Source: Parcubacteria group bacterium | GTDB taxonomy: Bacteria; Patescibacteriota; Minisyncoccia; Moranbacterales; UBA2206 | Reading direction: 5' to 3' | DNA length: 60,171 nt | Assembly (NCBI GenBank): GCA_041664225.1 | Contig: JBAYLE010000005.1 | Location: 1-60,171 of the forward strand | Part shown: in pieces, positions 19,101 through 60,109 of the stretch | Layout of the letters: the number at the start of each line of letters is the position of its first letter | Position numbering within the stretch: position 1 is the first letter of the stretch | The notes under the pieces: generated by a model | Database searches by the model: none | What the model saw: only the letters and a program-made list of their open reading frames with translations | What the model was told of the DNA's origin: nothing | Position numbers and translations under genes: made by a program

Positions 19101-19119
19101 TAGGAGAACATTTTTGCGC

Positions 19120-19160
19120 TTGCATATTTCCGTAGATTTGCTACGATAAAATACTTTATC
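19120..19160 (+). promoter_or_regulatory. purD promoter TTGCAT-N16-TACGAT with the same GATAAA-N4-TTTATC operator-like repeat
   Basis: Second copy of the 23-nt block; see 16889-16930. Confidence 0.55.
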
Positions 19161-19269
19161 GAAGGAGAGATAAAGCGGTTTTTTGACAATAAGAAGATAA
19201 AAATATAACGGGTAAAAGGGATGAAGCATTGTATAAATCTGATATTTTTTGAGAAGGGAGAATACGGTT

Positions 19270-20595: not shown

Positions 20596-20662
20596 CGTGC
20601 ATTATGATGAGAGGCGAGTCCGGAAATACCGGACTCCCTCTCAAAATTATTTGGGAGGTGAT

Positions 20663-44965: not shown

Positions 44966-44973
44966 TATTACGC

Positions 44974-45391: not shown

Positions 45392-45392
45392 C

Positions 45393-45857
45393 CTAGTAAT
45401 TTTTCAGCGCCCTTTTTATCCTTCTTTCGCTTTCTTTTTTGGCGAGGTCTTCGCGCTTATCAAACTTCTTTTTTCCTTTACCAACGCCAAACTCTAACTT
45501 CAATAGTCGCTTTTTAGTATACACTCGAATTGGCACCAGTGTCAAGCCTTCTGTGCGCACTTTGCCGATTAAACGGCGGATTTCCGCTTTGCGGAGCAAA
45601 AGCTTCCTCGGGCGGGTCGGTTCGTAGTTTTTTATCTCACCGGCGTGTTTCCAAGGCGTGATATGGGCGTTAGTCAGGTATAATTCTGCGCCCTTAACTG
45701 TGACAAAGCTTTCTTTGAGGCTGATATGGCCGGCTTTGACCGATTTCACTTCTTGGCCGGTCAAAACCAAGCCAGCCTCGTATTTGTCCGAAATTTGGTA
45801 GTCAAAATTAGCGCGCTTGTTGTAGGCTGCAGTTGTCATGTTTAAAGTATAGAGCAT
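45393..45857 (-). CDS. smpB: SsrA-binding protein SmpB
   Basis: NKRANFDY ... EAGLVLTGQEVKS ... YEPTRPRKLLL ... GKGKKKFDKRE. Confidence 0.95.
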   Translation of the reverse strand: MLYTLNMTTAAYNKRANFDYQISDKYEAGLVLTGQEVKSVKAGHISLKESFVTVKGAELYLTNAHITPWKHAGEIKNYEPTRPRKLLLRKAEIRRLIGKVRTEGLTLVPIRVYTKKRLLKLEFGVGKGKKKFDKREDLAKKESERRIKRALKNY

Positions 45858-45977: not shown

Positions 45978-46436
45978 ATGAAGAAAAACTTAGGAGATAA
46001 TGCTATCACTTTTTCATTAAATACAAACATTTACACGCCGGAGATAATTTATAAAACGTGCTATGTTTTCATTGATCGGATGTATATTTATCTTGATCAG
46101 CCAGAAAAAAATCTAATCACGGCATCTCTTAGGGGTAAACGTGAACTAAATCAAGGGGAGCTAAAAAAGCTAGAAGGAGAGTTTTTCAATGAGCTTTTGA
46201 ACACAAAACTGCGGGAAGAAATTTCCAGGAAAAACGCGAAACTTTTAGAATATATAGTGGGAGGGGCAATAAACGCTGCGCTGGAAAAGGATGAAAATTC
46301 CGGCAAAGATGAATTCGCCGATATTGAAAAGGAAATAAGGCAGCTGGATGAAGAATTGGCAGAAATGGACAAGGCGGATTATAAAAAAGACTCTCTTAAT
46401 ATCAGGCAAATCAAGAAGATTAATAAAAAGAAATAA
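45978..46436 (+). CDS. hxsD: HxsD-like protein (His-Xaa-Ser system)
   Basis: EFFNELLNTKLREEI resembles the LLNDYxLRE signature I recall for the HxsD family. Acidic coiled-coil tail. Confidence 0.55.
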   Translation: MKKNLGDNAITFSLNTNIYTPEIIYKTCYVFIDRMYIYLDQPEKNLITASLRGKRELNQGELKKLEGEFFNELLNTKLREEISRKNAKLLEYIVGGAINAALEKDENSGKDEFADIEKEIRQLDEELAEMDKADYKKDSLNIRQIKKINKKK

Positions 46437-46663
46437 TGGCAAAGTATCAAAAATCAATAAACTTTTGCAGCAGCTTGTATTCAGAAAAAAGCATCAAGGA
46501 GGCCACAAATGAATACAAAAAAGCCTATGGCGGAAAAATCGGCTTTGAAATTTTAAAGGAAAAGGGATATACACAAATAAAGTTATTATTAAACGATAAT
46601 AATTTGGGTGACAATATTGCGGATGAATTTTCCAATTATTTGTTGTTTTTGAACATACAATGA
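46436..46663 (+). CDS. Short HxsD-like paralogue (ends just after the EFxNYLL motif)
   Basis: The template SINFCSSLYSEKSIKEA ... IKLLL ... ADEFSNYLLFL parallels the N-terminal half of the 45978 protein. TAATG and ATGA overlaps with both neighbours. Confidence 0.45.
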   Translation: MAKYQKSINFCSSLYSEKSIKEATNEYKKAYGGKIGFEILKEKGYTQIKLLLNDNNLGDNIADEFSNYLLFLNIQ

Positions 46664-48126
46664 AAAAAGATGAATCTTTTTTAGTAAAAAATAGGAAGCT
46701 GGATAAATTTTATTTCAGGCAGCTTCGGGAAAAAACTCTCATTACTAATGATGGCGGAAATTGGATTTCTTTGCCGAATGATGATTTTAGGCGTTTTATT
46801 TCAGGAAAAATAAAGAACACAGAAAAGCTGTACCAGGAACTTGAAAAAAAAGGATTCATAAATGTCGGAAAGAAAAAACTTTCTGAATTAGCCAGCCAGT
46901 ATTTAAAATTAAACTACTCGCTTTCTCAGGGGCCTTCTCTTTTTATCATTGTTCTTACGCTGCGGTGCAACCACCGCTGTTTGTATTGCCAGGTTATTCC
47001 GGAAAATCCCAAGCAGAAAGGTTTTGATATGGGCAAAGCAACTGCCAAGAAAACGGTTGATTTGATTTTCCGGACTCCCTCAGAAAGTGTCCGTCTTGAA
47101 TTTCAAGGCGGAGAGCCACTACTCAACTGGCCAGTGTTGAAATACGTTGTGAAATATGCCAAAGAAGTGAATAAAAAGAAGAAAAAAAATTTAAAAATAA
47201 GCATTGTTTCCAATCTTTCCTTGATGGATGACGAAAAATTGAAATTTCTGCTGGACGAGGAAGTTGACATTGCTTGCTCGTTGGATGGGCCGGCTAAAGT
47301 GCATGATAAGAACAGAACATATTTGGACGGCGCTAGCAGCCATAAAGTTGTATCCGTCAAAATAAAAAAAATTCAAAAAGAAATCAAAAAAAAGCAAGAA
47401 AAAACAAAAGAAAAGACGGACAAATTGAATGCAATACTTACAGTTACTAAATTTTCCCTCCCGTACTATAAAGAAATTATTGACGAATATATGAGCTATG
47501 GCCTGGATAATGTTTTTATCAGGCCGCTGAGCCCTTTCGGCCTGGAACGAAAAACAACTGACCTAATCGGTTATACGGCGGAAGAGTTTTTGGAATTTTA
47601 CAAAAAATCCTTGGATTACATAGTGGAATTGAACTTAAAGGGGAAACTTTTTGCGGAAAGAGGAACATTCAATATCCTAAGAAAAATATTAAAGCAAGAG
47701 GATCCCAATTTTCTGGAATTGCGTTCGCCATGCGGGGCAGGAATCGGGCAGATGGCTTTTGACTATGACGGAAAAATATTTACTTGCGATGAGGGCAGGA
47801 TGGCGCGCCGGATGAGCCATGATAACTTTATGATAGGCGAGGTAGATGATAATGACTATAACCGGCTGATTGATAATGAAGTTGTAAAAACTATGTGCCT
47901 GGCATCCTCTCTGGATAATCATGCCGGCTGTCAAGATTGCGTCTATAAACCATATTGCGGAGTTTGTCCCTTGGCTAATTATATCGAGTGCGGAACGATT
48001 TTTCCCCAGTTAGCCAATACGTTGCGATGCCGGATAAATAAGGGCATCTTTGACTATATATTCCGAAAGATGGGGGACAAAAAATACCGAACCGTTTTTG
48101 AAAGCTGGGTGGGTAAGGGGTTATAA
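46660..48126 (+). CDS. hxsB: Radical SAM / SPASM-domain maturase, HxsB-like
   Basis: CNHRCLYC (CxxxCxxC), FQGGEPLL, C-terminal CGAG ... CDEG ... CQDCVYKPYCGVCP (SPASM-type Cys pattern). Confidence 0.7.
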   Translation: MKKDESFLVKNRKLDKFYFRQLREKTLITNDGGNWISLPNDDFRRFISGKIKNTEKLYQELEKKGFINVGKKKLSELASQYLKLNYSLSQGPSLFIIVLTLRCNHRCLYCQVIPENPKQKGFDMGKATAKKTVDLIFRTPSESVRLEFQGGEPLLNWPVLKYVVKYAKEVNKKKKKNLKISIVSNLSLMDDEKLKFLLDEEVDIACSLDGPAKVHDKNRTYLDGASSHKVVSVKIKKIQKEIKKKQEKTKEKTDKLNAILTVTKFSLPYYKEIIDEYMSYGLDNVFIRPLSPFGLERKTTDLIGYTAEEFLEFYKKSLDYIVELNLKGKLFAERGTFNILRKILKQEDPNFLELRSPCGAGIGQMAFDYDGKIFTCDEGRMARRMSHDNFMIGEVDDNDYNRLIDNEVVKTMCLASSLDNHAGCQDCVYKPYCGVCPLANYIECGTIFPQLANTLRCRINKGIFDYIFRKMGDKKYRTVFESWVGKGL

Positions 48127-48165
48127 TTCTTTTTAGGGGCTGTGGACAACATGGTGGGCGGTGTA

Positions 48166-48195
48166 TTTACATAATTATGCGGGTTATGGTATAAT
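48166..48195 (+). promoter_or_regulatory. Internal promoter TTTACA-N18-(TG)G-TATAAT in front of the precursor gene
   Basis: Extended -10 TGGTATAAT read directly. Short AT-rich leader with no SD. Confidence 0.5.
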
Positions 48196-48222
48196 ATAAA
48201 CATAAAAATTTCTTATAAAAAA

Positions 48223-48477
48223 ATGGCAAGGAATAAAAAAATCCCTCAAATTAAAAAAAACATTAAAGTATTTTTGCAAAGTGAGGAAGGAAAGATTGTC
48301 GAAAAAGATGCCGTCAAGCTGGGCATAGCTTTAATCGCGGCGGCGGGCATTATAAGCGGGATAGCCAAGCCGGACGCAACCCAGGCAGGATGCCACTCTT
48401 CCCACTCTTCCCATGGCTCGCATGGCTCCCATGGCTCGCATGGCTCCGGCAGCGGGTGCCAGATCGGCGGGTGGTAA
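48223..48477 (+). CDS. hxsA: His-Xaa-Ser repeat peptide (HxsA-like candidate precursor)
   Basis: C-terminal C-HSS-HSS-HGS-HGS-HGS-HGS-GSGC-QIGGW. N-terminal basic segment followed by a hydrophobic helix (KLGIALIAAAGIISGIA). Confidence 0.7.
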   Translation: MARNKKIPQIKKNIKVFLQSEEGKIVEKDAVKLGIALIAAAGIISGIAKPDATQAGCHSSHSSHGSHGSHGSHGSGSGCQIGGW

Positions 48478-48496
48478 TAAAGTTTAATAACATATT

Positions 48497-49273
48497 ATGG
48501 CAAAAAAAATAATACTTGCATTAATTGTTGTTGTGATCTTGGTTGTCATAGCCTTAGTTGGTGGCAACATCTCAAAAAATAAAAAAGCAAGCGAGGTGAA
48601 CCAACAAAATAATGATTTGAAGGTGGTGAAAAACGTTCCTTGTCCAGAGGCTTTTAATCCTGAAAAAGCATCAGAAAATTTTGACAAGCTTGCTCCTTCT
48701 ACTAAAGATCTGCTTGGCCAGTACTCTTTTTGTAAGGCTGCTTTGGACGGCGATAAGACAATTTGTGGCAAGTTGCCGCCCAGCTATGAAAAATCAACTT
48801 GTGAGGACGATTATGGTACCGGAGTTGATGTGTTTTTGACGAAAATATTGGGGAAGAAAAATTTTACCGATGATGACGTTAAATATTGCGTTGATAAAAA
48901 TATTTTTGGCGTAGCCGATTTGGAACAAAGGGGGAATCGATGCCGGACAACGCTTACAGCCATATTCAGCCAAGATGTCAAAATTTGCGACCAGGAAACC
49001 AGTGATTATGGAAAGGCCAATTGCATCAATGTTGTCTCGGGCAAGCCAAGCGCTGGCAACTGCGATAATGTCTCAAATGAAGAGAGCAAAGAAATGTGCA
49101 AAATCAGGGCTAAATTCATCCAGACTCTTAAGTTCGAAAAAACAGCTGTCAATTGTGATGCTATATCGGAGCAATATATCAAATTTAATACCCTCTGCCG
49201 GTTGCATTTTCTCTCCTCGTGCGATGATTTTTTGAAGCAATTGCGGGATAATTACTTTTGCGTGGGAAATTAA
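48497..49273 (+). CDS. Membrane-anchored exported protein with 14 spaced cysteines
   Basis: N-terminal TM IILALIVVVILVVIALV. Cysteines recur every 10-25 aa (for example CPEAF, FCKAAL, ICGKL, TCEDD, YCVDK). Confidence 0.65.
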   Translation: MAKKIILALIVVVILVVIALVGGNISKNKKASEVNQQNNDLKVVKNVPCPEAFNPEKASENFDKLAPSTKDLLGQYSFCKAALDGDKTICGKLPPSYEKSTCEDDYGTGVDVFLTKILGKKNFTDDDVKYCVDKNIFGVADLEQRGNRCRTTLTAIFSQDVKICDQETSDYGKANCINVVSGKPSAGNCDNVSNEESKEMCKIRAKFIQTLKFEKTAVNCDAISEQYIKFNTLCRLHFLSSCDDFLKQLRDNYFCVGN

Positions 49274-50317
49274 ATGGAAATAGTCCTGGTTGTTACAAAG
49301 CAATGCAACTTTGCTTGCCGGTATTGCTATGAAAAAAACAAAAAAATAGCGGGGGGAAAAATGCCTTTCGAAACAGCCAGAAAAATTCTGGATTTTTTTT
49401 TACCGCATTTACGCGCTGGTGATGCGGTGCATTTATTCGGCGGCGAGCCGCTTCTGGTTTTCCCTCTAATCAAAAAAATTATCAGCCATATCAAATCAGA
49501 AAATAGCAAGGTTCAAATCAGATTAGATACAAACGGCTCTCTGCTTTCCGGCAGAATCCTCGATTTTCTAAGGAAAAATAAAGTCAGCCTGACACTCAGT
49601 ATGGATGGCGGTCCGGAAACGCAAAACTGCAACCGCTGCGCTCAAGACAAAGCTGTGGACACTTATGATATTATTGCCAAAAGCAATTTTTTTAAAAAAA
49701 TTGTCAGTTATCCGCAACTGCAGATTAATCAAGTTGCCGCTATGAATAGGATTAACTTTTTGGCTCAGGATTTTTTCCACCTGGTTAAATTGGGCTTTAG
49801 AAATATAAATATTAAGGAAGAGAAGGGGAAAATTTGGCCGAAGACAAAACTGGAGGTACTGGAAAAAGAGCTGCGCAAAATTAATTATTACTGCCTGAAA
49901 CACCGGCAGAATATTAAGATAAAACATCTGAGCGGATATTTGGACAATCCCAAAAGCGGATTGCGGAAGAGCATGGAATGCCATCCTGAGCAGATGGTCG
50001 TCGCCCTGCCTAGCGGAGATATTTTTCCGTGCTCGGCAGTGTTGAGCGTGACAAAAAAACTCTATCTGGAAAGCATGAAGGTAATCTCTGCCACCGATTT
50101 GGAAAAGATCAAGCATAAAGAATTTTTCAAAATCAAGCGTCAAGCCTACTTGAAGGCTTATGATAAAATGAAACAAGATACGATGTTTATGGGCAAGAAA
50201 GTGCTATGCGCCGCTTTGCTTAAGAATCAAGACAATTTGAATTTAAAGAAGATGCATGAAAATGAAAAACAGAAAGCTAGTGTTTTCAACCGCAGCATAA
50301 AATATTTTCTCAAATAA
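49274..50317 (+). CDS. Radical SAM enzyme (possible HxsC counterpart)
   Basis: CNFACRYC, FGGEPLL. The start abuts the previous stop. Confidence 0.7.
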   Translation: MEIVLVVTKQCNFACRYCYEKNKKIAGGKMPFETARKILDFFLPHLRAGDAVHLFGGEPLLVFPLIKKIISHIKSENSKVQIRLDTNGSLLSGRILDFLRKNKVSLTLSMDGGPETQNCNRCAQDKAVDTYDIIAKSNFFKKIVSYPQLQINQVAAMNRINFLAQDFFHLVKLGFRNINIKEEKGKIWPKTKLEVLEKELRKINYYCLKHRQNIKIKHLSGYLDNPKSGLRKSMECHPEQMVVALPSGDIFPCSAVLSVTKKLYLESMKVISATDLEKIKHKEFFKIKRQAYLKAYDKMKQDTMFMGKKVLCAALLKNQDNLNLKKMHENEKQKASVFNRSIKYFLK

Positions 50318-50331
50318 AAATATTTATCCTT

Positions 50332-51369
50332 ATGGCAGAAAAAAAGAAAGAAATCAGCTTGTTTATTGTCTTGACGCATAATTGCAATTTTCATTGCCGT
50401 TATTGCGAAATATGCAGCCATTTTTGCAAGGTTTGCAAAGGCAACTGCGTGATGACCGGAGAGACGATCAATAAAATCGAGGAATTATTGAAAAGATCGG
50501 AAAATGATTTTAAAAAAATCAACCTGTCTTTTTTTGGAGGCGAACCGTTGTTGCATTTTGACAAAATGAAGAAGTTAGTAGATAGGGTGAGAAAATCAAA
50601 AAATAGTAACAAATATGAAATTTATCTTTATACCAACGGGTATCTGCTGGATAAGAAAAAGATCGAGTATCTTAAAAAAAACAAGGTGCAAGTCAGTTTA
50701 AGTTTCGACGGCAGAGAAAAAACACAGAATTTAAATCGCCCGTTAAGAGAAAATAATGGAGAGACATATAAAACAGTGCTTGAAAACATTAAAACTTTAC
50801 GCTCCAGAAACAAAATTTTTTCCGATGTGAATTTGTACATGACATCATTTCCATCTTTGGCAAAAGATCTTTTTGAAGATTTCAAACACATGCTACGCTT
50901 GGGATTTCGCAGATTTGAATTAGTGCCGGCGGTTTCAGGCAGGGGATCATGGGACTGGAATGAAGAACAATTAAAGGTGTTTGAAAAAGAGCTAGAAAAA
51001 ATAAAAAAATTAGCGGTAAGGCTCCATAAGGCTGGAATAAATTTGATTTTTCAGGAAGTATCTGAAATCAAGAATCCCGAACGCTACTTTGAAAACTTCG
51101 GCCAAAATATTTTCAGCATTGATTCAAATGGCAGTGTTTATTCCTCGCCATATTATTTGGTCCTGACTGAACCGCATCGGGGAAAATACAGAATTGGGCA
51201 TGTAACAACGGCCAAAAATATCAAGGATGATTTTTTGGGTAAAAAAGATCTGCTCAATTCAGGGGATTTATTTAAATTATATTATATCAACAAGGGGAAT
51301 AATCTCAGAAGCATGGTTATCTGCAATAAAAAATTATGCGAAATAAGAAAATTGATAAAATATACCTGA
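50332..51369 (+). CDS. Radical SAM enzyme with an extra Cys cluster directly after the SAM motif
   Basis: CNFHCRYCEICSHFCKVCKGNC, FFGGEPLL. Confidence 0.7.
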   Translation: MAEKKKEISLFIVLTHNCNFHCRYCEICSHFCKVCKGNCVMTGETINKIEELLKRSENDFKKINLSFFGGEPLLHFDKMKKLVDRVRKSKNSNKYEIYLYTNGYLLDKKKIEYLKKNKVQVSLSFDGREKTQNLNRPLRENNGETYKTVLENIKTLRSRNKIFSDVNLYMTSFPSLAKDLFEDFKHMLRLGFRRFELVPAVSGRGSWDWNEEQLKVFEKELEKIKKLAVRLHKAGINLIFQEVSEIKNPERYFENFGQNIFSIDSNGSVYSSPYYLVLTEPHRGKYRIGHVTTAKNIKDDFLGKKDLLNSGDLFKLYYINKGNNLRSMVICNKKLCEIRKLIKYT

Positions 51370-52343
51370 AAAATGTTTGCCGATCGATTTCCGGGCTTTC
51401 CGGCATAAGCCGGCCTGGAAAGTTAGCAATGCAAAAAGCGAAAAAATTTGTTTCGCTTTTATATTTGGCAAATTCGCAAAACAGCAATTTTTTGTCCGAC
51501 GATTTTTACTTTGGTTTTTCGCTAAAAATAAAGAGAGGCAATGGAAAAATAATTCCGTCAATCAGGATACTGAACCACAATTATTATCCCAGGGTGACAA
51601 GCGAGCTGCAAAGGGAAAAAATTTATAAAAAGAGAGGACAGATCATAAAGCACATTTTCAAGGCCCTGAATTTTTCAACCGAAAAAAATCTCACGACCAT
51701 CGATTATTTGCTGGAAAAAACTTACGATAAGAATGTCCTCTTGCCGGTGCAATTCGATGCTAATTTTGAGAAAAATAAGAATGCGCTCAAGGTTTATTTT
51801 TGGTGCGGGATCAAATATTCCACGCGGGAGCATAAGTACGCAGTATTGAAGGAAATTCTAGGGAAAGAAAAAATGGCAGATGACATTCTTTTTCTTCGCA
51901 ACAGAAACATCGAATTATTCAGTTTTGATTTTGGGGAAAAAAAGAAAGGCGCCAAAATTTACGTGCGTTACCGCATGAATTCGAGGGAATTTTACGCGGA
52001 TTTAAAAAAGTTTAATTTTAAAAAAGAAACGATCGCGGATATCAATAAATTCTTCTTTGCTCACAAGGAGTATTTGCAGCCAGATGTCACAATTTGTTAT
52101 AATGTCGCGGGCAGGGCTCTCTCTATGAAAAAAATCGAGCTTTTTTTGGATAAAAAAGTAGAAAGAAAAACCGTAATAGCAAAAAAAGTGGCGGCGGATT
52201 TCACCCGTAAATTCTCAGAAAAATTCATCGCTCCTCTTGAAACGGAAGACTTTTTTGGGGAATCATATGCTTACGCGGTAGGAGAAAATTTTATAGCCGT
52301 CTATTTCCAGAAAATAAAATCAGAAAGAAATAGGTCTGGTTAA
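51336..52343 (+). CDS. Unknown beta-strand-rich protein (speculative ABBA-prenyltransferase-like fold)
   Basis: Recurrent strand-like segments FGFSLKI, ALKVYFWCG, LFSFDFG..GAKIYVRY, DVTICYNV, FIAVYFQ. The start is uncertain: 51336 overlaps the upstream gene by 34 nt, and the next ATG is at 51429. Confidence 0.5.
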   Translation: MRNKKIDKIYLKNVCRSISGLSGISRPGKLAMQKAKKFVSLLYLANSQNSNFLSDDFYFGFSLKIKRGNGKIIPSIRILNHNYYPRVTSELQREKIYKKRGQIIKHIFKALNFSTEKNLTTIDYLLEKTYDKNVLLPVQFDANFEKNKNALKVYFWCGIKYSTREHKYAVLKEILGKEKMADDILFLRNRNIELFSFDFGEKKKGAKIYVRYRMNSREFYADLKKFNFKKETIADINKFFFAHKEYLQPDVTICYNVAGRALSMKKIELFLDKKVERKTVIAKKVAADFTRKFSEKFIAPLETEDFFGESYAYAVGENFIAVYFQKIKSERNRSG

Positions 52344-52363
52344 GCAAATAATCTTTATAAAAA

Positions 52364-53254
52364 ATGAAAAAAGCCGACATTAAAACAGGATTTTTGTGCA
52401 ATAATGATTGTCTTTTTTGCGTGCAGGGCAGTGAGAAGAAAAAATTTGGCAACAAAAAAACCGCGGAAATAAAAAAAATTATGGATGAGGCCAAGCGTGA
52501 TTGTCAGATCGTCGTTTTTACCGGTGGTGAGCCGACTATCCGCCAGGATATTATTGAGTTGGTGGGGTACGCGAAAAAGCTGGGTTTTGCGATGATTCAG
52601 ATCCAGTCCAATGGCAGAATGTTCGCCTACAAAGATTTTTGCAAAAAAATAATCAAGGCAGGAGCCAATGAATTCGCCTTAGCTTTGCATGGCCACATTC
52701 CTGAGTTGCACGATTATCTCACGCAAAGCGAAAGTTTTCTGCAAACGGTAAGAGGAATAAAAAATCTTAAAAAACTCAAACAAACCGTGATTATGAATAC
52801 CGTAATCACCAAATCCAATTATCGCCACTTGCCGGAAATTGCCAAGCTTTTGGTGAGCCTCGATGTTGATCAGTTCCAATTTGCATTTGTCCACGCCATT
52901 GGTTCGGCTGGCAAAAATTTTCAAAGCATCGTTCCGCGGATGACAATGGTTATGCCGTATCTTAAAAAGGCGATAAGTATCGGCAAGCATTTCAATAAGA
53001 GCGCTATGGTCGAGGCCGTGCCTCGTTGTCTTTTAGAAGGCTATGAAGACAATATATCGGAAAATATGATGCCGGAAATGAAGATATATGACCAGGATTT
53101 TATAATTAAAAGTTACACTCAAGCTAGAATTACTAAAGGCAAAGCCAGAGGACCGCGATGCAAAAAATGCAAATATTTCCATGTTTGTGAAGGATCTTGG
53201 AAAGAATATCCGGATCATTTTGGGTGGGATGAATTTGAACCGTTGTTAACATAA
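52364..53254 (+). CDS. Radical SAM enzyme, CNNDCLFC subgroup, C-terminal CxxCxxxxxC
   Basis: FLCNNDCLFCVQG, FTGGEPT, QSNGRMF, RCKKCKYFHVCEG. Confidence 0.7.
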   Translation: MKKADIKTGFLCNNDCLFCVQGSEKKKFGNKKTAEIKKIMDEAKRDCQIVVFTGGEPTIRQDIIELVGYAKKLGFAMIQIQSNGRMFAYKDFCKKIIKAGANEFALALHGHIPELHDYLTQSESFLQTVRGIKNLKKLKQTVIMNTVITKSNYRHLPEIAKLLVSLDVDQFQFAFVHAIGSAGKNFQSIVPRMTMVMPYLKKAISIGKHFNKSAMVEAVPRCLLEGYEDNISENMMPEMKIYDQDFIIKSYTQARITKGKARGPRCKKCKYFHVCEGSWKEYPDHFGWDEFEPLLT

Positions 53255-53260
53255 CTTTTT

Positions 53261-54220
53261 ATGATAAAGGCGGAGAAAATAATAAGTATTTTGCGAAATG
53301 TTCCAAAAAATAAAGACGGTGCTATTTCCAGAAAAAACCTAGACAGACATATCCTAAAAAGAGGAACGGATCTGGAAAAATTACTTGGTTTTTTGGCTAA
53401 AAAAGAATATATTTTTCACGGCTCGAAGAAGCTTTATAAAATTATCAAACCGCAAAAAAGCCATAGAATTTCGGGAGAAACAATATCAGCTATTTACGCT
53501 ACAAAAATACCCTCAATAGCTATTTATTATGCTATGATTAGCCGCAGTACGCATAAGATAGTTCATGGAAAAAAGTTTTACAATAAGCATAAAAATAACA
53601 ATAAGGGGTATATTTATATTTTGAGAAGAAATGACTTTGAAAAAAACAATGATGAGAATTTCCTTTGCCGCAAAAAGGTCGAACCAGAGTTTATTTTTGA
53701 ATGCCGATTTGATGATTTTTATAATAATCTTAAAAAAGAAAAAATTAACTGGAAAAAAGCCGGAGAAATAATTTTGCAAAATTACATCCATTCAAGCGCG
53801 GTTCACAACGTGAAACATGTCTTGAAAACCGTTAGAAATTCTTCTATCATTGCGAAATCGGTATGCCCGGAAAAAATAGATGATGTCAAGATGGGAGCCT
53901 TACTACATGATATTGGGAGAGTGGATGATTTCGACAGGGAATCGACGCATGCACAGAAGGGGGCGGCTATCGCTTATGAAATTCTGGCGAAATATTTCAG
54001 AAATGCACCCCTTGATTTCAAAAAAATTTTATTTGCCGTAAAATACCATTCGCGGGGCAAAATATCCCGAGATCCGGTTATTGGAGCGATTTGGGATGGA
54101 GACAGGCTTGATTTAGAGAGAGTCGGAATGAAAGTTAATCCAAAATATCTTTCCACTAAAAAAGCTAAAGAAATTATGCGTTCTAGGCTTATCGAAAAGC
54201 TTAAAAATATATCTTCTTAA
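53261..54220 (+). CDS. HD-domain phosphohydrolase-like protein with unknown N-terminal domain
   Basis: H ... LLHDIGRVDD ... HAQKGA ... KYHS in the C-terminal half. Confidence 0.6.
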   Translation: MIKAEKIISILRNVPKNKDGAISRKNLDRHILKRGTDLEKLLGFLAKKEYIFHGSKKLYKIIKPQKSHRISGETISAIYATKIPSIAIYYAMISRSTHKIVHGKKFYNKHKNNNKGYIYILRRNDFEKNNDENFLCRKKVEPEFIFECRFDDFYNNLKKEKINWKKAGEIILQNYIHSSAVHNVKHVLKTVRNSSIIAKSVCPEKIDDVKMGALLHDIGRVDDFDRESTHAQKGAAIAYEILAKYFRNAPLDFKKILFAVKYHSRGKISRDPVIGAIWDGDRLDLERVGMKVNPKYLSTKKAKEIMRSRLIEKLKNISS

Positions 54221-54228
54221 CAACCGTC

Positions 54229-55362
54229 ATGCTAAAAAACAATTTAAAACTAAGAGAAAAAGCCGCGGAAGAAAAAAGGCAGTGGGTGAGAATCACCAGA
54301 GCGTGCAACAATGATTGCCTTTTTTGTTTGGATCAAGAAGCCCATAACGGGAAACTTGTTCCGATAACAGAAGTGGTGAGAGTTTTGAAGCAGGGGGGAA
54401 AGGAAGGAGCGGCCAGAGCTATCATTTCCGGCGGAGAGCCGACTCTTCATCCGCAAGTTTTTGAAATAATTAGAAAAGCAAGGCAATTGGGCTACAAGCA
54501 TGTTCAGATGATCAGCAATGGCCGGATGCTGGCTTATGAAAATTTTGTCCAAAAGCTCAAAGAGGCTGGTTTAGATGAGGTTACCCTCTCCTTGCATAGC
54601 CATAAAAAAAATGATTTTGAAAAAATGTCAGGCGTGAAAGGAAGCTACTTACAGGCGATGCGGGGGCTCAAGAACGCTTTGGACAATAATTTCATTGTGA
54701 GCGTGGACATCGTGATCAATAAGATAAATTACAAGACACTCAAAGAAACAATGATTTTTTTTGAAAAAATGGGAGTATCTGAATTCGATCTTTTGCACCT
54801 AGTTCCATTTGGAAGTGCCTGGAAAAACAAGGATCAGTTGTTCTTTTCTTCAGCAGAGGCAAAAAAATATTTGCACCGGGCTTTTCAATTAGGGAAAAGA
54901 AAAAATTTATTCATCTGGACCAATCGTTTGCCGGCAGCATATTTGGAGGGCTTTGAAGAATTGATCCAGCATCCTATCAAAATGTCCGGTGAGATCAAGG
55001 GGATGGAAAGAAACTTTTTAGAATTTGTGAAAAGCGGCAAAAAAATGCCATGTTTTGGCGAAAGATGCGAATTTTGCTTTCTCCATGATTTTTGCGCTGA
55101 TCTTTCCGAGTTACGGGACAAAAAATTTTTGGAAGCCAAGCTGGCGCCTCCGTGTTTTGTGCAAAAAAAGGCTCCAAAAAAAGTGTTTAAATTCACGAAA
55201 AATTTTGATATCTATGAATTTTTGAAATTTTTTATTGACCATCGTTATTTTATTAAGAGTACTGGTTGCAGTAATTGCAAATACGACCAGCTTTGCCAGG
55301 GCGCCCAAATCAACGAGATCAGGAGCAAGGGATTCAAAATTTTAAAATCCATTAAAAAATAG
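54229..55362 (+). CDS. Radical SAM enzyme, CNNDCLFC subgroup
   Basis: RACNNDCLFCLD, ISGGEPT, ISNGRML, SLHSH, C-terminal CSNCKYDQLCQG. Confidence 0.7.
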   Translation: MLKNNLKLREKAAEEKRQWVRITRACNNDCLFCLDQEAHNGKLVPITEVVRVLKQGGKEGAARAIISGGEPTLHPQVFEIIRKARQLGYKHVQMISNGRMLAYENFVQKLKEAGLDEVTLSLHSHKKNDFEKMSGVKGSYLQAMRGLKNALDNNFIVSVDIVINKINYKTLKETMIFFEKMGVSEFDLLHLVPFGSAWKNKDQLFFSSAEAKKYLHRAFQLGKRKNLFIWTNRLPAAYLEGFEELIQHPIKMSGEIKGMERNFLEFVKSGKKMPCFGERCEFCFLHDFCADLSELRDKKFLEAKLAPPCFVQKKAPKKVFKFTKNFDIYEFLKFFIDHRYFIKSTGCSNCKYDQLCQGAQINEIRSKGFKILKSIKK

Positions 55363-55371
55363 TTACTGTTT

Positions 55372-56307
55372 ATGGCAAATATTGGATATATTCAAATCAC
55401 GCGCGAATGCAACCAGAAATGCATCATATGTTCCAATCCGCCGACGGACCAGTTTCTTGAATTTGCTCAAGCTAAAAAAGAAATAGACGGTCTAAAAGCG
55501 AAGGGATGCAGCGGAGTTATTTTTACCGGCGGGGAACCGACTCTTTACGCAAAACTTCCAGAACTTATCAAATATGCTTCGCGCGCCGGATTATTTCCCA
55601 GAATCATCACCAATGGCCAAAAGATTGCCAAGATTGCTTATTTGAAAGAACTCAAAAAAGCCGGGCTCAAGCATTTGCATCTTTCGGTTTATTCTGGCGA
55701 GGAAGGAATCCAAAGCCGGCTTTCCGGCAATAAAAATTCGCTGAAAAACATAAAGAAAGCTCTGGATAATTTGAAAAAAATCGGGGGGATCAGTGTGGAT
55801 GTCAATACAGCCATCAGCCGATACAATGCCGGGCACCTTTCAAAAACAGCAAGCTGGCTAATTGAGAGGTATCCCTTTATCAGCCATTTTGTTTTTAACA
55901 ATCTGGATCCTTTCATGAACCGGGTATCAGAGAATCCGGAAGTCGTGCCCAAGCTAGCTGACTTTGAGCTAGAACTGCATAAAACTTTAAAAATGCTGGA
56001 GCAAAACAAAAAGACATTCCGAGTCGAACGCGTGCCCCTGTGCTATCTGCCGGAATTTGAGCATATTGCCACGGAAACCAGAAAAATTATCAAAAGCGAA
56101 AGCCGTATGATTTTCTTTTTGGACCGGCGGGGTAAATTTGAGCAGACTGGTTTTCGTGAATACAAAAAATTTCCGCCCTGTCAGGCTTGTTCGCTTAAAA
56201 AAATTTGCGCCGGTCTTTATGCCAAGGGCGGGTATTATAGCGAAAAAGAACTTTTTCCGGTCTTTGTTGATCCTCAAAATATAATCGATAAAATCTCCAA
56301 AGGCTGA
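55372..56307 (+). CDS. Radical SAM enzyme, related subgroup
   Basis: RECNQKCIICSN, FTGGEPT, ITNGQK, C-terminal CQACSLKKICAG. Confidence 0.7.
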   Translation: MANIGYIQITRECNQKCIICSNPPTDQFLEFAQAKKEIDGLKAKGCSGVIFTGGEPTLYAKLPELIKYASRAGLFPRIITNGQKIAKIAYLKELKKAGLKHLHLSVYSGEEGIQSRLSGNKNSLKNIKKALDNLKKIGGISVDVNTAISRYNAGHLSKTASWLIERYPFISHFVFNNLDPFMNRVSENPEVVPKLADFELELHKTLKMLEQNKKTFRVERVPLCYLPEFEHIATETRKIIKSESRMIFFLDRRGKFEQTGFREYKKFPPCQACSLKKICAGLYAKGGYYSEKELFPVFVDPQNIIDKISKG

Positions 56308-56336
56308 CACTGGCAACTCAACAGTAATAAAAAAAT

Positions 56337-57263
56337 ATGGCGCTCAATTACATTCCATTGGCAATAATATTTTTCATCAGTTTTTTTGTATTAAAAGAAG
56401 ATTGGCAATATAAAAAAATCAGAAACAAATGGATAATGCTAGGTTTTTCGGCCGGAGCCGTATATCTTGTCATTTCTTATTTATTTGGAATAGTCAGCAT
56501 TGAGTATTTGGGAAAAATTGTTGCCAACACCGCCATTTCATTTTTAGTTGGTTTTCTTATTTGGCAATTCGGCTTCTGGCCTTCGGGAGACGCTAAGTTT
56601 TTTACGCTTATCGCTTTCTTGTTGCCGCTGGATCTTTACGCCCAGGCATATCTTTTTTATTTTCCTTCCTTTTGGTTGCTCTTCTATTCCTTTGCGGCGT
56701 TCTTGGTCTTCATCTTTTTTAAAGCGCTGATATTTTTTGTAAAATATTTATTTTCCCATCGGGGCAAGAGCGGCCGGACAAATGAATTGATAGCTGAGGT
56801 CATCAATTCCAAAAAATTATTAAATTTAAATTTTTGGGTAAAAATCGGCAAGCGGCTTGCGATTGGGCTGTTAATTTACTTTATCGCAGTCAAATTTTTT
56901 TTGAAAACCGACTTCAATTTTTGGAGGTTTATTATTTCGCTGGTTGTCTTCGCGGTCGTTCTGGCTCTCCTGGATTTTTATGTGGATCATAATTCCAGAT
57001 ATAAAATAAAAACGCTTGAGCTGAAAAAAGGCATGAATATATCCAAAGAAACTTTAGCTGAGATCAAGAAAGACAATAACTTTCCTGAATTAGCGGGGAA
57101 AATTTTTCCGGAAGGACTGACTGAAAAACAGGCGTCAGCAATTAAAAATTACTTGGCAGGCAGAGATATTCAAGAAATTTATATTTTCAAGACTATTCCT
57201 TTTGCCTGGTGGATAGTCTTGGGAGCCTTTTGGGTGGCGGTCTCATCCCAAAGATTATTCTGA
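56337..57263 (+). CDS. Polytopic membrane protein, A24 (prepilin/preflagellin peptidase)-like aspartic peptidase with inserted soluble domain
   Basis: Two Asp contexts as in the A24 family: LKEDWQYKKIRNKW and FWPSGDAKFFTLIA (GxGD-like). C-terminal IPFAWWIVLGA resembles the PilD-type ending. Confidence 0.55.
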   Translation: MALNYIPLAIIFFISFFVLKEDWQYKKIRNKWIMLGFSAGAVYLVISYLFGIVSIEYLGKIVANTAISFLVGFLIWQFGFWPSGDAKFFTLIAFLLPLDLYAQAYLFYFPSFWLLFYSFAAFLVFIFFKALIFFVKYLFSHRGKSGRTNELIAEVINSKKLLNLNFWVKIGKRLAIGLLIYFIAVKFFLKTDFNFWRFIISLVVFAVVLALLDFYVDHNSRYKIKTLELKKGMNISKETLAEIKKDNNFPELAGKIFPEGLTEKQASAIKNYLAGRDIQEIYIFKTIPFAWWIVLGAFWVAVSSQRLF

Positions 57264-57284: not shown

Positions 57285-57314
57285 TTGGCAATTTGTATTG
57301 TTTTGTGGTATAAT
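57285..57314 (+). promoter_or_regulatory. Promoter TTGGCA-N18-(TG)G-TATAAT for the 916-aa gene
   Basis: Same extended -10 TGGTATAAT as at 48187-48195. SD-less AT-rich leader. Confidence 0.5.
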
Positions 57315-57358: not shown

Positions 57359-60109
57359 ATGAAAAATTTATTTTCACAAAAAAAGGGCTGGGCTTTGATT
57401 TTCTTCCTCTTAGTTTTTTTAGTTACTTTTAGTTTCAGTGAAAAGGCGGAAGCTGCAATTTGTGGCTGTCCTAATAATAAAAACTGTCCTGCATCCTCCT
57501 CCTGCTACGACGATGGATATGGCAATTATAGTTGCTATTCATACTCAGGGGGTGACGGGTGTGTTGCCTGTACGCCATCTTTTCCTATTACCATTAATAG
57601 TTTTTATGCCAGCCCTCCTGCTGTTTTAAAAAATACCTCAACTACCCTGTATTGGAGTACCAGCGGTTCTGGAACCTATTCTTGCAAGGTGCAGTATTTA
57701 GTATACTGGCTTCCACCATCTTATCGCGTATTGTCTGCCACAGCGACAAGCGGTTCAGTAGTAATGGATCTTGATACTGAGGCAAAAAACGTGTCTTTAA
57801 TTTGTTGGCAGACGGCAGGGACGGGCCATACTACTTGTAATTCTGGGGCCAATGCCAAGATTACTGTTGATGTGCACAAAACCGAAACTAACAGCACAAC
57901 TACCACTTGCACATGCGATGGTTCGATTCCGGGTGGGAGTGTCACTTGCCCGGGAGCCGGTAATCCTTGGACATCCGGAGTTCCAGCTTCCTGGCACAAT
58001 GTAGGTTCTTGCACGGGACAGCCCTGTGAATACACGACGCCGGCGCCTACCTGCAGTATCTCATATTCCCCAGGTACAATTACCTCTCCGGGCAGTTCCA
58101 CAGCCACGGTGACTATGAATAATGTTACCAGCGCCACCTATGGCTGTACCGGCCCTCAACCGGTTGCATCTGGAAGCGGCTTGGGTGTTGCCGCCAGTGC
58201 TACTTATGTATTTACCTTTCCTGCTGGCCAAACCGGCACGGAAACATGCACAGCGTCCGTGTCAGGTCCTGGTGGTTCAAGCTCTTGCAGCGGTTCAGTT
58301 GTTGTTAACGCTCCCGCCAACCAAGATCCTGAAGGCGGAGTAGAGTCTGGAGGAACTTGTACTAATGGCACCATACATCTTTGGGGCTGGGCTATTGACC
58401 GAGACGCACTCACTACCAGCATACCCGTCCATTTTTACGAAGGCGGAACCTACAAAGGTCAATGTAATACCACTACGCTTAGATCCGATATCAATACCGC
58501 CTATGGTACCACTGGCAACCATGGCTTTGACTGCTATATTTCTGGATTTTCTGCTGGCAACCATACCATTACAACGTATGCAATCAATACTCCAGCTGGC
58601 AATAATCCGGCTTTGCCTTGGGGGACCAATCCGCAAACTGTCAATTGCCCCGTAACTGACTGCGCCCTCCCCTGGGGCGGCACGCTAGCCAATGGTTCCA
58701 GCGTTACTGCCTATCAGGCCAGCTCGGTTCCATGCGGATCCACTTGCACCAGCCAAACTAGAACCTGCAACAGCGGTACCTTAAGCGGCACCTACACCAG
58801 CCAGACCTGTTCGGTATCCGGTTGTCTTTCCTGCAACCGTCCTTGTGGCGGATCAACCATCAGTGGCAACTGGGGCGCTTTATGCTATCAATCCGCCTCC
58901 GTACCGTGCGGATCCAGTTGTTCCTCATCCCAGGGTTACTGTAATAATGGTCTCTGGACAACCCCATATGCGGCTGGTTCTACCGCAGCCAGTTGTAGCG
59001 TAGCGGCTTGCGTTTCTTGTGCCTCTCCTTGCGGACTTTCCGCCACGACTAGTGGTAATTGGGGGCCTTTCTGTTATCTGGCCAGTTCAGTGCCTTGCGG
59101 ATCCAGTTGTTCCTCATCCCAAGGTTATTGTTTTAATGGTAACTGGATAACTCCATATACGGCTGGCTCTACCGCAGCCAGTTGTAGCGTAGCGGCTTGT
59201 CCGACTTGCACCCTCCCATGGGGCGGCACGATTGCCAATGGCTCCAGTGTCACCGCCTACCAAAACAGCTCTGTTGCTTGTGGCAGTAGTTGCGTCAGTC
59301 AAACCCGTACCTGTAACAGCGGAGTTCTGAGCGGCACTTACACTAATCAGAATTGTTCTGTGGCGGCTTGTTCCTGCAATTTGCCGTGGGGCGGTACTCT
59401 AGCCAATGGCTCTAGTGTCACTGCCTACCAAGCCAGCTCCGTGCCTTGCGGTTCCAGCTGTTCTAGTCAAACCAGAACATGCAATAGCGGAGTTCTCTCT
59501 GGCAGCTACACCAGTCAGACTTGCAGCGTGGCGGGCTGTACTTCCTGCGTCTCTCCTTGCGGACTGGCTGCTACGGCCAGCGGCAATTGGGGAGCCTTCT
59601 GCTATCTGGCCGGTTCTGTCCCTTGTGGATCAAATTGTCTTTTGATTGCATCAGAGGGTTACTGTCAAAACGGTGTCTGGACAACACCTTACGCTGTTGG
59701 CGCCACTAGTGGGTCTTGTAGTGTAGCAGCTTGCGCTTCCTGCGTCTTGCCATGGGGTGGCAGCATTCCTTCCGGCAACAACGTTGTTGCTTATCAAGCT
59801 AGTTCCGTTCCGTGCGGATCCAGTTGCTCTCCCCAAGTGAGAACCTGCACCAACGGCTTCCTGAGCGGCAGCTATGCCAATCAAAATTGCTCGGCCACCG
59901 GTTGCCTCGGCTGCACTGCGCCGTGGGGAACAGCAATGGTTTCTGGCGGAGCAGTCACTGCCTGCCAATCCGCTTCCGTCCCGTGTGGGTCAAGCTGTGC
60001 CTGTGAAACTCGCACCTGTACCAACGGCGTTCTTTCTGGCAGCTTCACTGTTCAAGGACCTTGCAGCGTCCAAGTTTGTGACAAAAATTGGAAAGAAGTG
60101 GCCCCTTAA
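57359..60109 (+). CDS. Large exported Cys/Ser/Thr/Gly-rich modular repeat protein
   Basis: N-terminal KKG-WALIFFLLVFLVTF hydrophobic segment, a central GW...HGF beta-domain, and eight C-terminal Cys-rich modules of two types. Confidence 0.8.
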   Translation: MKNLFSQKKGWALIFFLLVFLVTFSFSEKAEAAICGCPNNKNCPASSSCYDDGYGNYSCYSYSGGDGCVACTPSFPITINSFYASPPAVLKNTSTTLYWSTSGSGTYSCKVQYLVYWLPPSYRVLSATATSGSVVMDLDTEAKNVSLICWQTAGTGHTTCNSGANAKITVDVHKTETNSTTTTCTCDGSIPGGSVTCPGAGNPWTSGVPASWHNVGSCTGQPCEYTTPAPTCSISYSPGTITSPGSSTATVTMNNVTSATYGCTGPQPVASGSGLGVAASATYVFTFPAGQTGTETCTASVSGPGGSSSCSGSVVVNAPANQDPEGGVESGGTCTNGTIHLWGWAIDRDALTTSIPVHFYEGGTYKGQCNTTTLRSDINTAYGTTGNHGFDCYISGFSAGNHTITTYAINTPAGNNPALPWGTNPQTVNCPVTDCALPWGGTLANGSSVTAYQASSVPCGSTCTSQTRTCNSGTLSGTYTSQTCSVSGCLSCNRPCGGSTISGNWGALCYQSASVPCGSSCSSSQGYCNNGLWTTPYAAGSTAASCSVAACVSCASPCGLSATTSGNWGPFCYLASSVPCGSSCSSSQGYCFNGNWITPYTAGSTAASCSVAACPTCTLPWGGTIANGSSVTAYQNSSVACGSSCVSQTRTCNSGVLSGTYTNQNCSVAACSCNLPWGGTLANGSSVTAYQASSVPCGSSCSSQTRTCNSGVLSGSYTSQTCSVAGCTSCVSPCGLAATASGNWGAFCYLAGSVPCGSNCLLIASEGYCQNGVWTTPYAVGATSGSCSVAACASCVLPWGGSIPSGNNVVAYQASSVPCGSSCSPQVRTCTNGFLSGSYANQNCSATGCLGCTAPWGTAMVSGGAVTACQSASVPCGSSCACETRTCTNGVLSGSFTVQGPCSVQVCDKNWKEVAP
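58661..60078 (+). repeat. Eight tandem coding modules (about 55-65 aa each) of two alternating types, order A-B-B-A-A-B-A-A
   Basis: Type A: C.LPWGG.(I/L)ANGSSVTAYQ.SSV.CGS.C.SQTRTCNSG.LSG.YT.Q.CSV..C. Type B: C.SC..PCG....SGNWG..CY...SVPCGS.C....GYC.NG.W.TPY..G....SCSVAAC. Confidence 0.85.

Follow-up and report, generated by a model that had tools for sequence, protein, structure and literature searches.

Introduction

The HXS system blocks the entry of phage DNA in Escherichia coli and, as published, consists of four genes, HxsD-HxsB-HxsC-HxsA, with 99.7% of the examples found in Pseudomonadota (Li et al., Nat Commun 2026, PMC13128918). E. coli HxsC binds HxsD, and mutation of its residues C342/C345, assigned to a second 4Fe-4S cluster domain, lowers the processing of HxsA, the modification itself being defined only as +8 Da (PMC13128918). 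Here we analyze a 60,171-nucleotide stretch of a Parcubacteria genome (assembly GCA_041664225.1, contig JBAYLE010000005.1, positions 1 to 60,171; hereafter, the window) that encodes three related radical S-adenosylmethionine (rSAM) enzymes, denoted rS1 (52364-53254), rS2 (54229-55362) and rS3 (55372-56307). These enzymes resemble HxsC and are encoded in one cluster with HxsD, HxsB and a precursor peptide containing His-Xaa-Ser (HxS) repeats. It appears reasonably likely that the trio constitutes the HxsC-type half of an expanded HXS cluster, in which the HxS precursor would undergo stepwise radical modification and removal of its leader by a peptidase of family A24.

Three short HxsC-like radical SAM enzymes

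The three rSAM genes, all located on the plus strand, code for proteins of 296 (rS1), 377 (rS2, which has a C-terminal extension) and 311 (rS3) aa, as listed in an original prediction made from the DNA sequence, and contain the motifs quoted there: LCNNDCLFC, FTGGEPT, QSNGR and CKKCKYFHVCEG in rS1; ACNNDCLFC, ISGGEPT, ISNGR and CSNCKYDQLCQG in rS2; and ECNQKCIIC, FTGGEPT, ITNGQ and CQACSLKKICAG in rS3. Each passes the Pfam Radical_SAM cut-off (PF04055; 81.3, 88.9 and 82.6 bits, respectively, against 29.5). The proposal that they are paralogs within one rSAM subfamily is borne out by pairwise BLASTP alignments, which cover nearly the full length with 30% (E = 7e-37), 26% (6e-21) and 28% (9e-24) identity. 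Similarity among the trio members far exceeds their similarity to the other three rSAMs of the window, the sole cross match being that between HxsB and rS3 (3.8e-4).

For comparison, canonical HxsC was taken from annotated hxsD-hxsB-hxsC-hxsA operons of an Aeromonas plasmid and an Adhaeribacter plasmid. Residues 104-377 of canonical HxsC align with residues 2-285 of rS1 (23% identity, E = 2e-17), and HxsC also matches rS3 (23%, 4e-16) and rS2 (3e-10). The endings of the canonical proteins, CDDCASKAVCCG and CTKCAVVNECGG, show the same C…CxxCx5C[CG]G pattern as those of the trio. Because of this alignment and the common C-terminal motif, we identify rS1, rS2 and rS3, from their sequences, as short HxsC-like proteins, that is, members of the partner class of HxsB. 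The original prediction had set them apart from the HxsB-like SPASM enzyme; on the present evidence, they are instead HxsC-type partners of the HxsB, HxsD and HxsA encoded just upstream. The approximately 100 N-terminal residues of canonical HxsC are absent from all three proteins, which start 11-25 residues before the CX3CX2C motif.

Among the NCBIfam models, the best match of rS1 is HxsC4 and that of rS3 is HxsC, whereas for rS2, archaeal MoaA (101.6 bits) is on a par with HxsC and HxsC4. None of these scores reaches the respective curated cut-off. The scores of rS1, rS2 and rS3 are 110.7, 98.8 and 88.8 bits against 267.9 for HxsC (TIGR03977), and 178.2, 97.2 and 59.4 bits against 500 for HxsC4 (NF038332). 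The NCBIfam release searched thus contains no curated model for any of the three families.

The cysteines of these enzymes are conserved along with the gene family. In rS1, the SAM-cluster cysteines C12/16/19 are invariant, and the auxiliary cysteines C222, C266, C269 and C275 are present in all 85 aligned sequences; in rS3, the SAM-cluster cysteines are C13/17/20, and the auxiliary ones, C224, C270, C273 and C279, are found in 41 of 41 sequences. The rS2 protein, with SAM-cluster cysteines C26/30/33, contains a first auxiliary set, C275/280/283/289 (37 of 38 sequences), and a second Cys4 set, C309/347/350/356 (34 of 38). These patterns are consistent with a single auxiliary [4Fe-4S] site each in rS1 and rS3 and with two sites in rS2, and the C-terminal cysteine motif is a conserved site at which an auxiliary cluster is probably bound. 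Accordingly, the single 'twitch'-style site suggested for all three enzymes is retained for rS1 and rS3 but not for rS2.

An AlphaFold2 (AF2) model of rS1 has a mean predicted local distance difference test (pLDDT) score of 86, with residues 261-296 below 50. The top Foldseek matches, with E values from 6e-13 to 1e-8, TM-scores of 0.55-0.68 and 14-21% identity, are GDGT-MAS (7tom), SkfB (6efn), BlsE (7vob), SuiB (5v1s), viperins, NifB, HydE and MoaA, and a PDB sequence search with rS1 agrees with this picture. The best structural neighbors are twitch/SPASM enzymes, and there is no SPASM match in Pfam or NCBIfam. The predicted structure places rS1 in the SPASM/twitch neighborhood without revealing its substrate. 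No characterized structural twin emerged, the best TM-scores (about 0.6-0.68) being scattered over enzymes acting on lipids, peptides and nucleotides.

Several other assignments were considered and rejected. A viperin-like antiviral nucleotide synthase (pVip) is contradicted by NCBIfam viperin scores of 55-56 bits against 180, and PADLOC matches to pVip (45-71 bits) are common to all six rSAMs of the window and so reflect the generic rSAM core. MoaA, NirJ, AhbD and Tes fall far below cut-off, with matches confined to the rSAM core. For none of the three enzymes was a closer characterized ortholog from an unrelated pathway found.

Conservation and age of the gene module

More than 1800 homologs of rS1 with 55-92% identity were identified, and relatives of rS1 are encoded in at least 361 genome stretches among species-representative bacterial and archaeal genomes, one genome per species being scanned. 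The best 80 of these stretches (49-70% identity), many of them on truncated contigs, are the reference loci for the counts out of 80 given below. They come from Patescibacteria, Omnitrophota, Myxococcota, Bdellovibrionota, Elusimicrobiota, Verrucomicrobiota, Spirochaetota, Planctomycetota, DPANN archaea and a metagenome-assembled genome (MAG) of Methanosarcinales. Co-occurrence of the trio outside the genome analyzed here is widespread. By tblastn against the 80 loci and additional loci found via specific homologs, orthologs occur in the same order with 60-70% identity for rS1, 48-58% for rS2 and 48-63% for rS3; such orthologs of each gene are present in Patescibacteria, Omnitrophota, Myxococcota, Elusimicrobiota and DPANN archaea, with identities of 48-70% in Parcubacteria, Omnitrophota and Moranbacteria. 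Orthologs of rS2 (38-58% identity) were detected in 34 of the 80 loci, usually directly after rS1, and those of rS3 (43-65%) in 37, rS1 being the most conserved member of the module. The recurrent order is rS1-rS2-rS3-A24, and at least 17 of the 80 loci contain all four genes.

Clustering at 45% identity of 284 HxsC-like open reading frames (ORFs) from the window and 82 related loci yielded three clean groups, corresponding to rS1 (83 loci, the window included), rS3 (40) and rS2 (36), with about 100 further HxsC-like paralogs outside these groups. Local triplication with divergence, as originally suggested, is not compatible with these observations: the orthologs in other phyla are 48-70% identical, compared with 26-30% for the paralogs within the window, and the gene order is conserved, which contradicts a recent local event. 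Since orthologs are far more alike than paralogs, the duplications must be older than the dispersal of the module among phyla. The trio thus represents three ancient, separately conserved orthologous groups of a short HxsC-like rSAM family, produced by ancient duplication and, to judge from these comparisons, inherited or transferred as a set. Together with the peptidase gene, this set apparently forms a mobile, conserved module, which in the window makes up the downstream half of the cluster.

The extra HxsC-like paralogs are often interleaved with the trio, and some genomes hold long arrays. In two Parcubacteria genomes (L009 and L010; GCA_030631305 and GCA_023132155), at least 11 rSAM genes form one unbroken co-directional array (8852-20891 in locus coordinates), which follows HxsD-HxsB and a 102-aa HxsA4-type precursor; the 10 rSAMs of L009 that were scanned all score under the NCBIfam cut-offs. 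To our knowledge, this array is among the densest of its kind in a reduced genome. In a Moranbacteria locus (L013, 8748-13900), a YcaO gene precedes rS1, and a gene for an asparagine-synthase-like amidotransferase lies between rS2 and rS3; in Omnitrophota (L011, 9348-9992), a PP-loop (Diphthami_syn_2) gene precedes rS1. YcaO, asparagine-synthase-like and PP-loop enzymes are common tailoring enzymes of ribosomally synthesized and post-translationally modified peptides (RiPPs). In a Myxococcales MAG (L029, 8803-15502), an rS1-like paralog, rS1, rS2, rS3 and an A24 homolog are followed by what looks, by eye, like a KamA/lysine-2,3-aminomutase-like rSAM, and the module adjoins ORFs that resemble, also by eye, rimP, nusA and infB.

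HxsD, HxsB, candidate precursor peptide and A24-type membrane protein

The window cluster consists of 13 co-directional ORFs on the plus strand (45978-57263; 11.3 kb), with short gaps and six rSAM genes; no convincing terminator was found between the cluster genes. The first gene (45978-46436) encodes HxsD, which passes TIGR03976 with 54.2 bits against 50; in 17 of the 80 loci, rS1 is preceded by a gene for an ortholog of this protein. It is followed by a gene for a 75-aa HxsD-related protein (46436-46663), which scores slightly below the HxsD_rel cut-off (NF038315; 37.9 bits against 41); L009 and L013 contain an ORF of 66-71 aa in the same position. The third gene (46660-48126) encodes the rSAM maturase HxsB, with 508 bits against 370 for TIGR03978; this protein is 32% identical to the annotated HxsB of the Aeromonas plasmid, and its close relatives are called rSAM/SPASM by NCBIfam. 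HxsB is encoded within 10 kb of rS1 in 23 of the 80 loci.

The next gene (48223-48477) encodes the 84-aa precursor, whose conserved leader precedes a hydrophobic segment; then come six H-x-S repeats, located between two cysteines, and a C-terminal tryptophan (CHSSHSSHGSHGSHGSHGSGSGCQIGGW). Its best match is HxsA3 (NF038309; 48.6 bits against 65), with lower scores for HxsA (32 against 122) and HxsA4 (NF038313; 27.7 against 55). A regular expression for at least three H-x-S repeats recovered small ORFs in 29 related loci, four of them archaeal, and several of these precursors pass the HxsA4 cut-off, with 88, 71 and 64 bits. The aligned precursors share the leader (I/L)PKIKKx(I/L)KxFLxSEEGKIxKK…KxG, after which come about 15 hydrophobic residues, a spacer, HGSHGS… repeats and a C-terminal Trp, and the precursor gene usually comes just after HxsB. 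A minimal layout, HxsD-HxsB-precursor-PapB-like rSAM-rS1, recurs in L034, L045, L051 and L069 and ties rS1 to the precursor.

Nearly all of the HxsA3/A4-type precursors in the window and 18 relatives end in Trp, often as GGW(C) or (S/Q/N)W, and many have a cysteine immediately before the first repeat; in the window copy, cysteines are present on both sides of the repeats. Promoter-like sites, each matching the consensus at 11 of 12 positions and known only as consensus matches, lie just upstream of the precursor gene (48098-48127 and 48166-48195). A promoter just ahead of the precursor gene is often seen for RiPPs. A minus-strand frame with H-x-S-like repeats (…HASHGSHASHG…) in the 48520 region was dismissed as a by-product of the codon repeat and not a gene.

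The last gene of the cluster (56337-57263, plus strand) encodes an A24-type, prepilin-peptidase-like polytopic membrane protein, with 18.7 bits against 26.5 for Peptidase_A24 (PF01478). When the window copy and nine related proteins were scanned, seven of the nine relatives matched this family and four passed the cut-off (L018, 33.4 bits; L019, 27.3; L068, 27.3; L005, 37.8); the C-terminal domain of archaeal A24 proteins is present in some of the relatives. Two Asp-containing motifs, D..K(I/K)xN and W(P/S/A)AGDAK(F/L)F, can be seen in the sequences. A relative of this protein is encoded in 30 of the 80 loci, typically right after rS3, and the conserved fourth member of the module therefore appears to be the A24-type peptidase, rather than the HD protein. 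The K-x-G and hydrophobic segment of the precursor resemble a class III (prepilin-type) signal and would suit such a peptidase.

The HD-domain protein

As originally noted, an HD-domain gene lies between the first and second rSAM copies (53261-54220, plus strand). The 319-aa product comprises an N-terminal domain (N-domain; residues 1 to about 175) and an HD domain (185 to about 300), the latter matching Pfam HD at residues 185-269 (PF01966; 34.9 bits against 22) and HDIG (30.5 against 27.6), with LLHDIGRVDD and KYHS present. The N-domain had been described as unrecognizable, and indeed, the first 175 or so residues contain no Pfam family above cut-off. Only five full-length relatives were found among 5.8e9 proteins, and none of the 80 reference loci encodes the HD protein. 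The closest homolog, P0002, adjoins OTCase and ADK, an unrelated context. A search with residues 1-175 against 1.84 billion representatives retrieved 40 relatives of the N-domain, most of them standalone proteins of 140-210 aa that lack a Pfam family, and several with the N-domain-HD architecture.

In P0126 (643 aa), the N-domain, the HD domain and an HxsC-like rSAM are joined in a single polypeptide; the rSAM part shares 33% identity with rS1 (E = 4e-53), and its terminal sequence is CKSCSLEKACKG…YGWDEFEP. In the respective locus, L096, an rS1 ortholog (53%) and an rS1-like gene come before P0126, which is followed by another N-domain ORF, an in-frame fusion of HD with an ortholog of rS2 (52%), and an rS3 ortholog (44%). 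The end of rS1 (81%), HD (38%) and the start of rS2 (55%) in L097 reproduce the window order, and in L099/L100, HD is found among an A24 homolog, orthologs of rS1 (56%) and rS3 (50%), and an rS2-like gene. An HD relative in L005 (33%) accompanies an A24 homolog and three distant rSAMs. Other HD relatives (L001-4 and L101) occur in contexts without rSAMs, and a metagenome scan for more relatives yielded six loci, none with rSAMs, L101 being in a housekeeping context. One N-domain-HD protein, P0144 (L099, 8611-10098), has an N-terminal fragment that resembles the C-terminal half of an HxsC-like rSAM (…LPYCFLP…CFKCFYQSGCAG…) and has no rSAM core.

The functional link of HD to the rSAMs that was originally suggested is upheld by its recurrence in at least four other metagenomic rSAM arrays (L005, L096, L097 and L099) and by the in-frame fusions in L096. 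The possibility that HD is an insignificant lineage-specific insertion, raised by its absence from the 80 loci and by the context of P0002, was dropped given the P0126 fusion and loci L096, L097 and L099. The HD protein appears to be an optional but genuinely linked accessory, and the in-frame fusions speak for physical cooperation with enzymes of the rS2 and rS1 types.

In Foldseek searches with an AF2 model of the HD protein (pLDDT 88.8), the HD half retrieved 2pq7 (E = 5e-4), YqeK, 3ccg and YpgQ. The N half retrieved three entries of the rifampin ADP-ribosyltransferase Arr over about 115 columns, with E values of 0.1-0.4 and probabilities of 0.8-0.97. A profile of the N-domain matched 2kxi, an entry labeled 'Uncharacterized protein' that we take to be NarE, with E = 0.099, and the window N-domain matched Pfam NarE (PF21641) with E = 0.013 and 16.2 bits against 27. 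The N-domain alignment contains, on successive predicted strands, HGS (H53 invariant), (I/V)YAT (Y79 largely conserved) and [QEDN]-[FY]-[IVL]-[SC], which resemble the H-Y-[EDQ] signature of ADP-ribosyltransferases (ARTs), the third position being N or E in the window copy. An ART-like fold of the N-domain is plausible but unproven.

Other genes of the cluster and its surroundings

Between the precursor gene and rS1, the cluster contains four additional plus-strand genes, of which the first, p258 (48497-49273), encodes a lineage-specific, Cys-rich protein of 258 aa with a hydrophobic N-terminal segment, no family match and no counterpart detectable by tblastn in the 80 related loci. The next two genes (49274-50317 and 50332-51369) encode PapB/HxsB-like rSAMs of 347 and 345 aa. 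The first scores 56 bits for Radical_SAM and has PapB as the best NCBIfam match (135 bits against 340); the second reaches 128 bits for PapB, also below cut-off. These two proteins are paralogs (35% identity, E = 4e-27), are shorter than typical SPASM maturases and remain under every NCBIfam cut-off. Many loci contain a weakly similar PapB-like gene (26-31% identity) just ahead of rS1. The fourth gene, p335 (51336-52343), which overlaps the preceding rSAM gene by 34 nt, codes for an orphan protein of 335 aa with no Pfam, NCBIfam or PADLOC match and just one weak match in the 80 related loci. From rS1 to the A24 gene, via HD, rS2 and rS3, successive genes are 6, 8, 9 and 29 nt apart.

Upstream, the cluster is bounded by a tmRNA gene on the minus strand (44973-45392; Rfam, 142 bits), located directly downstream of an ORF (45393-45857, minus strand) that resembles smpB by eye; further upstream, minus-strand ORFs resemble, again by eye, the genes for ribosomal proteins L20 and L35 and for IF3. 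Downstream, an ORF of 916 aa (57359-60109, plus strand) encodes a protein with an N-terminal hydrophobic segment and an extremely Cys/Ser/Thr/Gly-rich sequence, including many copies of a repeat of about 50 aa, …C.LPWGG(T/S)(L/I)ANGSSVTAYQASSVPCGS.C.SQTRTCN.G.LSG.YT.Q.C…. Its GC content is about 0.55 compared with about 0.40 in the rest of the window, and it has a promoter-like site of its own at 57285-57314 (a consensus match at 11 of 12 positions). This ORF has no family match and no homolog in the 80 related loci. Lacking homologs in the related loci, p258, p335 and the 916-aa protein were ruled out as conserved members of the system.

Proposed function and alternative explanations

If the trio acts within an expanded HXS cluster, the 84-aa precursor would be recognized via its conserved leader, IPxIKKxIKxFLxSEEGKIxKK, possibly with HxsD or HxsD_rel mediating the binding, given that HxsC is bound by HxsD in E. 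coli. HxsB, the two PapB-like rSAMs and rS1-rS3 would then modify the C-terminal (H-x-S)6 core in successive radical reactions, which probably differ in chemistry or position, and the A24 peptidase would cut off the leader at the junction between K-x-G and the hydrophobic stretch. The predicted product is a modified peptide, either membrane-anchored or exported, at or in the cell envelope, where, by analogy with the E. coli system, it may act, possibly against phage. The HD protein, in which the N-domain is combined with a YqeK/YpgQ-like HD phosphohydrolase, would serve as an optional accessory working with rS2- or rS1-type enzymes.

Several observations weigh against this scenario. None of the trio reaches a curated HxsC or HxsC4 score, the identity to canonical HxsC is 20-26%, and, unlike canonical HxsC, the trio is not adjacent to HxsB: the precursor, p258, the two PapB-like rSAMs and p335 separate the end of HxsB (48126) from the start of rS1 (52364). 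The precursor and the A24 protein of the window are likewise both under their family cut-offs. The 50-70% identity of rS1 between domains of life is unusual for a RiPP enzyme. In three Myxococcota loci (L029, L042 and L047), rS1-rS2-rS3-A24 occurs without HxsA, HxsB or HxsD within the 10 kb inspected on each side, and in L029, no HxS-repeat ORF was found within that distance. Finally, L088 contains a solitary rS1 beside ORFs that, judged by eye from their translations, are glycosyltransferase-like or of other sugar-modifying types. Because of the Myxococcota modules and the solitary rS1 of L088, the HxS peptide is a presumed, not a proven, substrate of the trio.

The main alternative is that the rS1-rS2-rS3(-HD) enzymes make or modify a non-peptide compound, be it a nucleotide, a sugar nucleotide, a lipid or a cofactor, with the Hxs genes being mere neighbors in some lineages, a possibility that we regard as unlikely but worth serious attention. 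The Myxococcota modules with no Hxs gene within 10 kb speak for it. The 50-70% identity of rS1 from the Candidate Phyla Radiation (CPR) to DPANN is a level more often seen in enzymes whose substrate does not vary; the solitary rS1 of L088 lies next to ORFs that, by eye, resemble a carbamoyltransferase, a B12-type rSAM and a glycosyltransferase; and UbiA and glycosyltransferase family 2 (GT2) genes flank L011. The nearest structures include enzymes acting on a lipid (GDGT-MAS), a nucleoside sugar (BlsE) and nucleotides (viperins and MoaA), and YqeK and YpgQ, the neighbors of the accessory HD phosphohydrolase, act on nucleotides; the N-domain of the accessory protein has ART-like features. However, the peptide maturases SkfB and SuiB rank equally high in Foldseek, with all TM-scores around 0.6, and the closest named families, HxsC4 and HxsC, are peptide or protein maturases. 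The conserved fourth gene encodes a leader-peptidase homolog, and the HxsB, HxsD and precursor genes co-localize in at least 23-29 loci across phyla, whereas the view of the Myxococcota modules that lack HxsA, HxsB and HxsD extends 10 kb to either side.

No partner of rS1-rS3 is as constant as the A24 peptidase, in many cases without Hxs genes nearby, and this could also mean that the module acts on another A24 substrate, such as a type IV pilin-like or class III signal-peptide protein, leaving HxsA3 to be matured by HxsB, HxsD and the PapB-like rSAMs only. We consider this improbable: no pilin-like ORF was noticed beside the module in L029 or in the window, the HxsA3/A4 precursors themselves possess the class III-like K-x-G and hydrophobic stretch, and the minimal layout links rS1 to the precursor. 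Least credible of all is the view that a recent local triplication and the HD gene gave rise to a self-contained new pathway unrelated to the HxsB system. It accounts for the proximity of three paralogs with common motifs but conflicts with the excess of ortholog over paralog identity, with the shared gene order and with the HxsC-like character of all three enzymes. The HXS interpretation is accordingly the one that we retain.

A bolder extension of the HXS interpretation, which we put forward as a long shot, is a pan-prokaryotic elaboration of HXS, spanning CPR, DPANN, Omnitrophota and Myxococcota, in which from three to more than ten HxsC-like rSAMs would decorate a pilin-like, A24-processed HxS peptide, and in some lineages, a fused ART-like and HD enzyme would add or process a nucleotide-derived group, of the ADP-ribose or phosphoribose type, on the Ser/His repeats. 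If true, this would be a peptide modification chemistry without known precedent, combining radical SAM and NAD-type enzymology.

Comparison with known systems

The three rSAM genes, taken by themselves, are a case of ordinary paralogy within a known type of system; they expose, though, a multi-rSAM elaboration of that system with informative gene fusions. The window reveals what appears to be a larger relative of HXS, with a leader-bearing HxS peptide, HxsB, HxsD, the HxsC-like trio (up to about a dozen such enzymes elsewhere) and a leader-peptidase homolog. This enlarged variant occurs widely among the CPR and DPANN lineages, whose genomes are small, and in several other phyla, and it is unstudied; no published description of multi-rSAM Hxs clusters in CPR was found in the literature searched. 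HXS itself has been known as an antiphage system only since 2026, was reported almost exclusively from proteobacteria, and its radical chemistry still amounts to +8 Da. CPR and DPANN organisms keep few biosynthetic genes, yet retain six or more rSAM genes here, which suggests that the product matters to these hosts. The natural variants, namely, the minimal HxsD-HxsB-precursor-rS1 sets and the HD fusions, offer a comparative route to the action of HxsC-type enzymes on His-Xaa-Ser repeats.

Like the twitch/SPASM enzymes SkfB, BlsE, SuiB, GDGT-MAS and MoaA, rS1 combines a partial TIM-barrel core with a C-terminal Cys-rich extension and a predicted auxiliary Fe-S cluster, but its cysteine spacing, C-x~43-CxxCx5C, is that of the HxsC type. 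The HD half of the accessory protein superposes on the HD phosphohydrolases YqeK, YpgQ and 2pq7 and contains the H..HD..H..D(A/G)DRLD motifs. The N-domain, in contrast, has no significant match to the ADP-ribosyltransferases Arr and NarE, and in the window copy, the third motif does not keep its acidic residue. We know of no described protein in which such an N-domain, an HD domain and an rSAM are combined. The NCBIfam variants HxsA3, HxsA4, HxsC4 and HxsD_rel provide the best models for the window precursor, rS1 and the small HxsD-related protein, but the respective scores (48.6 of 65, 178 of 500 and 37.9 of 41 bits for HxsA3, HxsC4 and HxsD_rel) are all under cut-off.

The closest described system remains HXS (PMC13128918), with which the window cluster shares HxsD and HxsB above the family cut-offs, a presumed precursor with tandem His-Xaa-Ser repeats, the HxsC-type rSAM ending, and tightly packed, co-directional genes. 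The differences are equally distinct. The published system has four genes, whereas the cluster in the window has 13, with six rSAMs among the products, and the place of HxsC is taken here by three short paralogs that lack the N-terminal region of about 100 residues. The published HxsA is a peptidoglycan-binding protein of about 190 aa, in contrast to the 84-aa window precursor with its leader and hydrophobic segment. The window cluster, found in a CPR-type bacterium, additionally encodes the A24 peptidase and the HD protein.

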